DNA of 32,000 nucleotides from Klebsiella michiganensis (GCF_002925905.1 NZ_PRDB01000022.1:7033-39032), one strand, 5' to 3'. Shown: positions 8,690 through 9,381, counted from the first letter of the stretch. A program made the numbers and translations. The notes: generated by a model from the letters alone, not told the origin.

Positions 8690-9276
8690 ATCCTGCTTTT
8701 CCAGGTAGCCCCGGGTGGCCTCAAAATAGGTGAATGTCGATTCCGGTTTTACAAATCGAAGCTGCATCAGGTGGCTCGTCGCGTCGTCGACGTAGATCAG
8801 TGCGGTACAGGCGGGTGCACGGTTCTCGAACCAGCGATGGTTGCTTGCAGCCATCAATCTGCATCAGTTCGCCGCAGCAGGCCCGGCGATAGCGTGGCTG
8901 CTGAATCTTTGGTGCTCGTTGTTTGCGGGGGATCCAGAGACCGGCTTTGACCATGAGTGAACGGACAGTCTCTTTGGACAGGTGAACATCGTGCAGTTCT
9001 GCGAGTTTCACATATGCAAGCGTCGGCCCAAAGTCGGTATAGCGATCTCGGATTATATTGAGCGCGTACTGTGCAAAACCATCAGGCAGCTGGTTATTGC
9101 TCAGGGTTCCTCAACGGCGGTTAGCCATACAAAGCGGGCCAGATTCACGGTAACGCGACAGAAGACGCCGGCACTGACGAGCGGAGATACCGTGGCGCTG
9201 CGCGGGCATCTGCGTTGTCAGGTGCCGGTCGACAACATGGGTTAACTTCATCCAAAGTAAAAAACTGCGCTGAATG
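8690..9276 (-). pseudogene. N-terminal ~200 codons of a second, diverged IS1202-group transposase gene, multiply frameshifted and 3'-truncated
   Basis: Three minus-strand frames align by eye to residues ~8-205 of the intact copy. Examples are FTLDEVN, HGISARQCRRLLSRYRESGPL, TDFGPTLAYVKLAELH, AGLWIPRKQRAPKIQQPRYRR, GELMQIDG and APACTALIYVDDATSHLMQLRFVKPESTFTYFEATRGYLEKQ. Similarity stops abruptly at ~8690. Confidence 0.75.
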
Positions 9277-9347
9277 GGCCAGAGCAGAATCCCGGGATGG
9301 TTAACTGAGTTCTGATCAAAACCGCATAATCTTGCTGCCTCTACCTT

Positions 9348-9381
9348 AGTGCGCATAATGTGATCAGGGATTATGTAAAAA
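9348..9381 (+). other. dif-like site (prophage attL): XerC-type arm AGTGCGCATAA, 12-nt spacer TGTGATCAGGGA, XerD-type arm TTATGTAAAAA
   Basis: Direct comparison with dif (GGTGCGCATAA TGTATA TTATGTTAAAT) at 20155-20182. Confidence 0.75.

Follow-up and report, generated by a model that had tools for sequence, protein, structure and literature searches.

Sequence evidence for a layered record of an IS1202-family relic, a filamentous phage, and ISKpn21 at a Klebsiella chromosomal dif site

We analyzed a stretch of 32,000 nucleotides from Klebsiella michiganensis (GCF_002925905.1 NZ_PRDB01000022.1:7033-39032; hereafter, the window). It very probably preserves a layered record at one chromosomal dif, in which an IS that is now a relic came first, a filamentous phage classed as CTX-type came second, and ISKpn21 came third. 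The three proposed steps and their order are shown by comparison with the sequences of related genomes. The flanking genes match Klebsiella oxytoca-complex chromosomes, and the features discussed here are listed in Table 1.

In the history that we propose, the first arrival was a dif-targeting IS of the ISAba32/ISAjo2 subgroup, whose nearest relatives are an unnamed IS of a Cronobacter plasmid and ISSen13; its transposase-proximal end came to lie 5 bp from the XerC arm AGTGCGCATAA. By analogy with published work on the family, the transposase would recognize XerC-bound DNA. The element then lost its distal half and its terminal ACA, gained frameshifts and a stop, and became fixed in the lineage. 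In the second step, a CTX-type phage entered via a folded single-stranded attP, with an exchange at the border between the XerC arm and the central region that would be catalyzed by XerC if published work on CTX-type phages applies here. The predicted left product is a dead attL, in which relic-ACCTT-AGTGCGCATAA is joined to the phage central region; in the predicted right product, ACTTT-GGTGCGCATAA stands before the host central region and XerD arm, and dif is regenerated. In the third step, the newly made flank received ISKpn21, which has the same orientation, lies 5 bp from the phage-derived XerC arm, and duplicated ACTTT. The IS-free junction of the window's phage variant with dif would read ...GTCGACTTTGGTGCGCATAATGTATATT. 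An IS903-type element also inserted into the phage.

Table 1. Coordinates of the insertions, attachment sites, and associated features in the window
Feature	Position	Strand	Basis or remark
attL-like scar CGTATAATGTGATC	8679-8692	plus	Adjoins the relic where it is truncated on the left; 11-mer repeated in attL and match to L109
Relic, unnamed IS1202-family element (ISAba32/ISAjo2 subgroup, 5-bp duplication)	8694-9342	minus	tblastn, end-register alignment; distal half deleted
Transposase remnant of relic	8696-9279	minus	
Decayed IRL region of relic	9280-9342	minus	
Spacer ACCTT, relic terminus to XerC arm	9343-9347	plus	Position cut and duplicated by later family members
XerC arm of attL, AGTGCGCATAA, from the host's original dif	9348-9358	plus	Forms intact dif in phage-free loci
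Filamentous (inovirus) prophage at dif, ~7.45 kb	9359-17866	plus	Pfam gene set
Phage attP arms, whole	9359-9441	plus	Read from sequence
Phage central region TGTGATCAGGGA	9359-9370	plus	
Phage XerD-like arm TTATGTAAAAA, then loop	9371-9381	plus	
Inverted second Xer-type site CTTTTGCATAA-TCCCCA-TTATGCGCAAC	9414-9441		
Rep_trans	10056-11063		Pfam
Zot/pI	13916-14989		Pfam
Secretin	14962-16161		Pfam
IS903-type element, 1057 bp	16667-17723		In the right part of the prophage; 9-bp duplication GCAATCAGG
IS5-family transposase of the IS903-type element	16699-17667		Pfam
ACTTT, left copy of the ISKpn21 duplication	17867-17871	plus	Last 5 phage nt before the phage XerC arm
ISKpn21, intact, 2278 bp	17872-20149	minus	99.7-99.9% identical to annotated plasmid copies
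ISKpn21 passenger DUF6904	17976-18620	plus	Pfam
ISKpn21 transposase, 467 aa	18649-20052	minus	NCBIfam NF033594, 497 bits
ACTTT, right copy of the ISKpn21 duplication	20150-20154	plus	
Regenerated, functional-looking dif GGTGCGCATAA-TGTATA-TTATGTTAAAT	20155-20182	plus	Exact 28-mer, no chance expectation

The relic and its distance from the Xer site

An earlier note on this DNA had recognized a frameshifted transposase relic at 8690-9276. By tblastn with five IS1202-family transposases as queries, the transposase remnant was located at 8696-9279, in keeping with those coordinates, with matches on the minus strand to residues 3-15, 20-152, and 153-201. The three matches lay in three different frames, corresponding to two frameshifts, and an in-frame stop was also present. 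The relic spans residues 3-201 of a transposase of ~479 aa, and its identity to the five family transposases was 64-90%. The amino acid identity was 86-90% with the transposase of Cronobacter dublinensis pA84-1 (NZ_CP101596), which also gave the closest DNA match (86%), and about 77% with the ISSen13-like copy of IncHI1 plasmids. With the ISKpn21 of the window, it was 64-73%, and the DNA identity was 67% over 512 bp, in agreement with the view of the earlier note that the relic is only moderately similar to the intact copy and represents a different family member. Intact relatives of the relic matched NCBIfam NF033594 (ISNCY_2) at >490 bits.

The transposase-gene homology of the relic started abruptly at 8694/8695, indicating the loss of the residues after 201, of the distal inverted repeat, and of whatever passenger genes the element may have carried. 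The distal end (IRR) was deleted in every derivative of the relic seen, and the distal inverted repeat of its parent was found in neither L004 nor the Cronobacter plasmid, both of which were searched. The transposases and IRL (...GGACATTACAACTTTGCTG[C/T]TACA) closest to those of the relic were those of ISSen13 and the pA84-1 tIS, each of which lies 5 nt from a dif-like site, as the relic does. Unlike these two elements, the relic has lost residues 202 to the end, the passengers, and the IRR, its inner GGACAT transposase-binding repeat is mostly deleted, and its mutated tip no longer carries TGT...ACA. The missing terminal and subterminal repeats are consistent with the decay of an immobile remnant. 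The parent of the relic was probably a passenger-carrying tIS.

The terminus of the relic was set by ungapped alignment with its intact relatives, anchored on the XerC arm. In the relatives from Cronobacter, Salmonella IncHI1, and Serratia, the sequence ...GGACATTACAA(C/T)TTTGCTG(C/T)TACA is followed by 5 nt and the XerC arm of a dif-like site, and in the same alignment the relic end reads ...CTTGCTGCCTCT, ACCTT, and AGTGCGCATAA. The TTGCTGC motif of the relic was in a register identical to that of the intact relatives, and the conserved motif CTTGCTGC was located 9 nt from the XerC arm in the relic and likewise in L014 and L015. This conserved register places the terminus at 9342 and makes the spacer exactly 5 nt. 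The terminal tetranucleotide is CTCT (TTCT or TCCT in other strains) where the family has TACA, and the exact end of the relic therefore rests on the alignment register.

The geometry of the relic is equal to that of ISKpn21, which reads CCCCTACA, ACTTT, and GGTGCGCATAA in the same orientation and the same register. The two elements share the minus strand, and in each the transposase gene has its 5' end facing the Xer site, as had been claimed before. The spacing of ~4-5 nt given in the earlier note also stands, as exactly 5, but the register that it assigned to GCCTCTAC was two bases off in comparison with GCCCCTACA. This slip leaves the conclusion on the geometry unchanged.

At the left truncation border, the attL-like scar is composed of a possible 3' half of an XerC arm and the phage central-region bases TGTGATC. 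Its 11-mer ATAATGTGATC (8682-8692) is repeated at 9355-9365 in the window's own attL, where the counterpart of the whole scar region is 9352-9365. All 14 nt of the scar matched the attL of L109, AGTGCGTATAA joined to TGTGATC, and the scar was already present in the phage-free L002. It may be what remains of an older phage integration, lost afterwards in a deletion that also removed half of the IS. A candidate for an older XerC-arm scar at 8628-8639 (AAGTGTGCATTA) was rejected, as it is part of the SnoaL downstream unit conserved in Trabulsiella and Enterococcus. This unit, the SnoaL-like gene with 26 nt downstream (8129-8653), is conserved at 89-92% amino acid and 92-100% nucleotide identity and was found in Trabulsiella, Kluyvera, and several Enterococcus genomes, a pattern that indicates recent horizontal transfer between Firmicutes and Enterobacterales.

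The prophage, the regenerated dif, and ISKpn21

In addition to the genes listed in Table 1, the prophage carries the inovirus genes G5P and DUF2523, and the same phage without the IS903-type interruption is present in L006. The circular junction was reconstructed and folded as single-stranded DNA. It formed a forked hairpin (-36.6 kcal/mol, z = -8.3) that pairs both XerC arms and both XerD-like arms around a 6-nt bulge. We assign the phage to the CTX type, for which XerC-only strand exchange with irreversible integration would be predicted. Like CTX-type IMEX such as CTXphi of Vibrio cholerae, it is a filamentous phage with two inverted Xer-type sites that give a forked plus-strand hairpin with a bulged long central region. 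Its left end likewise consists of the host XerC arm, the phage central region, a loop, and the inverted second site, and dif is regenerated at its right end. Unlike CTXphi, the phage of the window has a Klebsiella host, encodes its own secretin, and is without close relatives in the phage collection (no match by megablast; pI/Zot at most 45% amino acid identity). No free phage genome or circular attP junction was found in the phage collection, and no viral contig with TCGACTTTGGTGCGCATAATGT was found. The sole IMG/VR match was L096, a prophage call that includes host flank.

ISKpn21 ends in TGT...ACA, has two subterminal GGACAT-N-GAGCC repeats per end, and is equal in length to the published element. 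Only 5 bp separate it from the XerC arm of the regenerated dif. This dif is the exact E. coli 28-mer, but an E. coli origin of the window, suspected on that account, was rejected: 5426 E. coli genomes gave no chromosomal match, and the flanks match K. oxytoca-complex chromosomes. When ISKpn21 and one ACTTT are removed, the G-type arm GGTGCGCATAA becomes contiguous with phage DNA; on the CTX-type model, the XerC arm of the regenerated dif would be derived from the phage. The first base of the XerC arm is polymorphic (A or G), being A-type in attL (the host arm) and G-type in the regenerated dif, and this polymorphism provides a direct read-out of the CTX-type model. More than 1000 plasmids appeared to share the arrangement ACTTT, ISKpn21, ACTTT, and dif. 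This apparent match was rejected as alignment spill-over because pECO-cbb3, when inspected, proved to have a tandem IS array with GACTT at its left side and ATGTT at its right instead of ACTTT.

The claim of a later IS insertion at the corresponding position, after the phage had regenerated dif, is supported by the ACTTT duplication and by the occupants of this junction in related phage variants. It would be quite improbable that ISKpn21 instead arrived with the phage, having inserted earlier 5 bp from the attP XerC arm, in a replicating phage or in the prophage array of a prior host, and then been packaged. Because the hairpin does not include the IS, attP would still function in a phage that carried it, and filamentous capsids accommodate longer genomes. 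The ACTTT-ISKpn21 junction was identical in every K. michiganensis-type copy of this phage variant seen (L006, L008-L010, and L111-L117), but identical junctions may reflect clonal descent, and no viral contig containing the phage together with ISKpn21 was found. Furthermore, the same junction is occupied in other phage variants by IS-X (L007) or by another version of ISKpn21 (L109), and it is empty in L110, where a related phage adjoins dif through its own G-type arm. IS-X is a family member with a 448-aa transposase 52% identical to that of ISKpn21. These varied occupants indicate that insertion at the junction is recurrent and separable from the phage.

Phage-free chromosomes and recurrent insertion

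Comparison loci were fetched via the flanking SnoaL and AraC genes, and the XerC side of dif was then read in each. In the phage-free L100, L102, L105, and L106, the sequence was ...CTTGCTGCCTCT-ACCTT-AGTGCGCATAATGTATATTATGTTAAAT, that is, the relic fused to an intact A-type dif, which reads AGTGCGCATAA-TGTATA-TTATGTTAAAT. This arrangement is exactly the state predicted to precede phage integration. L106 was 100% identical to the window over 7800-9360, except for a 434-bp internal tandem duplication. The duplication, at 5080-5513 of that locus (corresponding to 8637-9070 of the window), comprises the SnoaL terminator and half of the relic. The relic followed by ACCTT and an intact A-type dif was also present on an E. 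coli plasmid fragment (p88_1577-3).

The same relic, identical in truncation and frameshift, was found in the phage-free L002 (CP003218.1), L011, L098, and L101. In L002 and L098, it lies beside a G-type dif with the variant tip and spacer ACTTCT-ATATT-G. Other deletion derivatives of the same relic copy were present in L004 and L097; that of L004 keeps the transposase C-terminus and the TetR and nitroreductase genes, in synteny with the Cronobacter plasmid. These two genes adjoin the transposase both in the Cronobacter plasmid (L012 1-1660) and in L004 (10500-12700), and an arylamine N-acetyltransferase gene is also present beside the transposase in L004. A scan of genome contigs with the SnoaL protein for IS-free ancestral states returned mostly Firmicutes and MAG homologues.

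The presence of the relic in phage-free chromosomes indicates that it is chromosomal, old, and independent of the phage. Two claims of the earlier note are upheld by these loci: that the XerC arm of attL is the original host arm (A-type and next to the relic in L100, L102, L105, and L106), and that the relic predates the phage and was not phage-borne (L002, L011, L098, and L101). The note had also allowed for import of the relic with the phage or another element, and its position in phage-free chromosomes answers this in the negative. It is hardly credible that the phage came first and that the relic's parent then targeted the XerC arm surviving in attL. A perfect XerC arm does remain in attL, and the family is thought to recognize XerC-bound DNA and tolerates varied central regions (bioRxiv 10.1101/2022.12.17.520857), but the identical relic is fused to intact dif in phage-free strains, one of which has a 100% identical flank, and this refutes a later arrival of the relic for this lineage.

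Two other observations concern the dif region in related DNA. The plasmid segment with aph(3')-Ia (aphA1) carries 128 bp of the IRL end of the relic and a complete dif (p88_1577-3, L001 2940-4145); it is 99.8% identical to the K. oxytoca-complex chromosome L100 and occurs in 14 plasmids. We considered the chromosomal origin of aph(3')-Ia beside the relic and dif as a discovery and set it aside, as the origin of aphA1 from K. michiganensis has already been published (Moran & Hall 2025, PMC12670165); a co-mobilized IS relic or dif is not mentioned in that paper. In K. michiganensis FDAARGOS_647 (L104, CP044109.1), the tailed-phage genes Phage_Gp111 and Ead_Ea22 adjoin the dif core at ~7190-7250 in locus coordinates, and the XerC arm is replaced, reading ...CCTTTTGCA directly followed by ATGTATATTATGTTAAAT. 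This suggests a prophage in L104 whose attachment core shares sequence with dif in the central region and the XerD half. Lysis genes were likewise observed beside dif in L113 and L117.

Dif-adjacent copies were looked for in other genomes, and elements at the same position were found in L011, L097, L101, L103, and L099, as well as at the phage/dif junctions of L007 and L109 described above. In L011, a further element begins directly after ...GCCTCTACCTT, that is, after the ACCTT of the relic. This element (1657-5007) has an IS1202/Tn7-like end TGTCAATGCAGTTTTAAAATGTCAC and at least three cargo genes, including one for an FRG-domain protein, and the contig ends before its far end. In L097, ISKpn21 lies between the relic and dif and duplicates ATCTC; in L101, IS-X lies between them and duplicates (T)ATATT. 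Two tandem ISKpn21 copies occupy the position in L103, and another family lineage occupies it in L099.

Among strains, the 9-12 nt beside the XerC arm are far less conserved than the remaining relic, which differs by ~2%. The variants of tip, spacer, and first arm base were GCCTCT-ACCTT-A, ACTTCT-ATATT-G, and ACTCCT-ATCTC-G. The variable stretch corresponds to 9336-9348 of the window (the last ~6 nt of the relic, the spacer, and the first arm base), as compared with L002 (11205-11220) and L097. It might be made up of footprints that IS copies arriving later had left behind.

Related phages in other Klebsiella hosts showed, at attL, three additional kinds of relic or IS 5 nt from the XerC arm, one in L108, L118, L120, and L122-L126, one in L096 and L121, and one in L109; L119 alone had no IS-like flank. 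Overall, this phage family is flanked by IS1202-family ends on the left in 13 of 14 host/attL contexts and on the right in all but one sequenced context. At least five distinct family lineages in related genomes share the 5-bp geometry, whether at dif or at attL, and on this comparison, chance is excluded as its cause. Within the K. oxytoca complex by itself, no fewer than five lineages have reached the same 5-bp position. The probability that the relic was imported with the phage or another mobile element, or lies beside attL by coincidence, is negligible, for although L096 has a transposase relic beside the same attL, that relic is a different copy (81% nucleotide identity, different truncation, and different host flank), the relic of the window is chromosomal and older than the phage, and the lineages sharing the geometry argue against coincidence.

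Relation to known targeting and implications

Members of the ISAba32/ISAjo2 subgroup insert at dif or at plasmid dif-like sites, place the IRL at a distance of 5-6 bp from the XerC arm, and generate 5-bp duplications, and ISKpn21 targets the chromosomal dif of Klebsiella and Serratia (Harmer, Pong & Hall 2023, PMC10132070; Siguier, Rousseau, Cornet & Chandler 2022, bioRxiv 10.1101/2022.12.17.520857). According to the same two papers, partial copies retain the IRL at the correct distance, and one site can accumulate a stack of IS in which the copy closest to it arrived last. The earlier argument for site-specific targeting is correct but had already been published there. The window agrees with the subgroup in the oriented insertion 5 bp from the XerC arm, its intact element being ISKpn21 itself, and in the 5-bp duplication, the TGT/ACA ends, and the extra subterminal transposase-binding repeat of the intact copy. 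Compared with the named members of the subgroup, the relic is an unnamed one, with amino acid identities of 87% to the Cronobacter plasmid IS, 77% to the ISSen13-like copy, and 65% to ISKpn21. In contrast to published stacks, the two IS layers of the window are not directly stacked but are parted by an Xer-integrated phage.

Neither of the two papers mentions phages or IMEX, and none of the papers searched combines IMEX with IS1202. The alternation of IS and Xer-integrated phage is apparently undescribed, and it follows naturally from two known mechanisms. The targeting behavior is a documented family property, which the layering of IS, phage, and IS illustrates anew in a modest way, opening no new mechanism.

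A bolder reading is that the XerC flank of Klebsiella dif is a stratified landing pad for alternating dif-seeking IS and CTX-type phages that are functionally coupled, which we regard as unlikely. If it were true, each phage would bury an occupied flank in a dead attL and donate a clean one that is quickly re-occupied, and the 14-mer at 8679-8692 would have been left by a previous round of phage, IS, and deletion. The near-universal sandwiching of the phage family would then reflect functional coupling. In one form of such coupling, the IS would part the prophage from dif and alter virion production from tandem prophages; in another, the IS would be exported inside phage particles.

Taken at the level of the layered record, these natural genomes independently confirm the homing of the ISAba32/ISAjo2 subgroup to the XerC side of chromosomal dif. 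An IS located 5 bp from dif would appear to be no bar to XerC-mediated phage integration, and phage integration resets the target for the next IS. The layers serve as a relative clock for events in the terminus region, and annotators of Klebsiella genomes should be prepared to find decayed IS1202-family ends next to dif and next to the attL of Xer-integrated phages.
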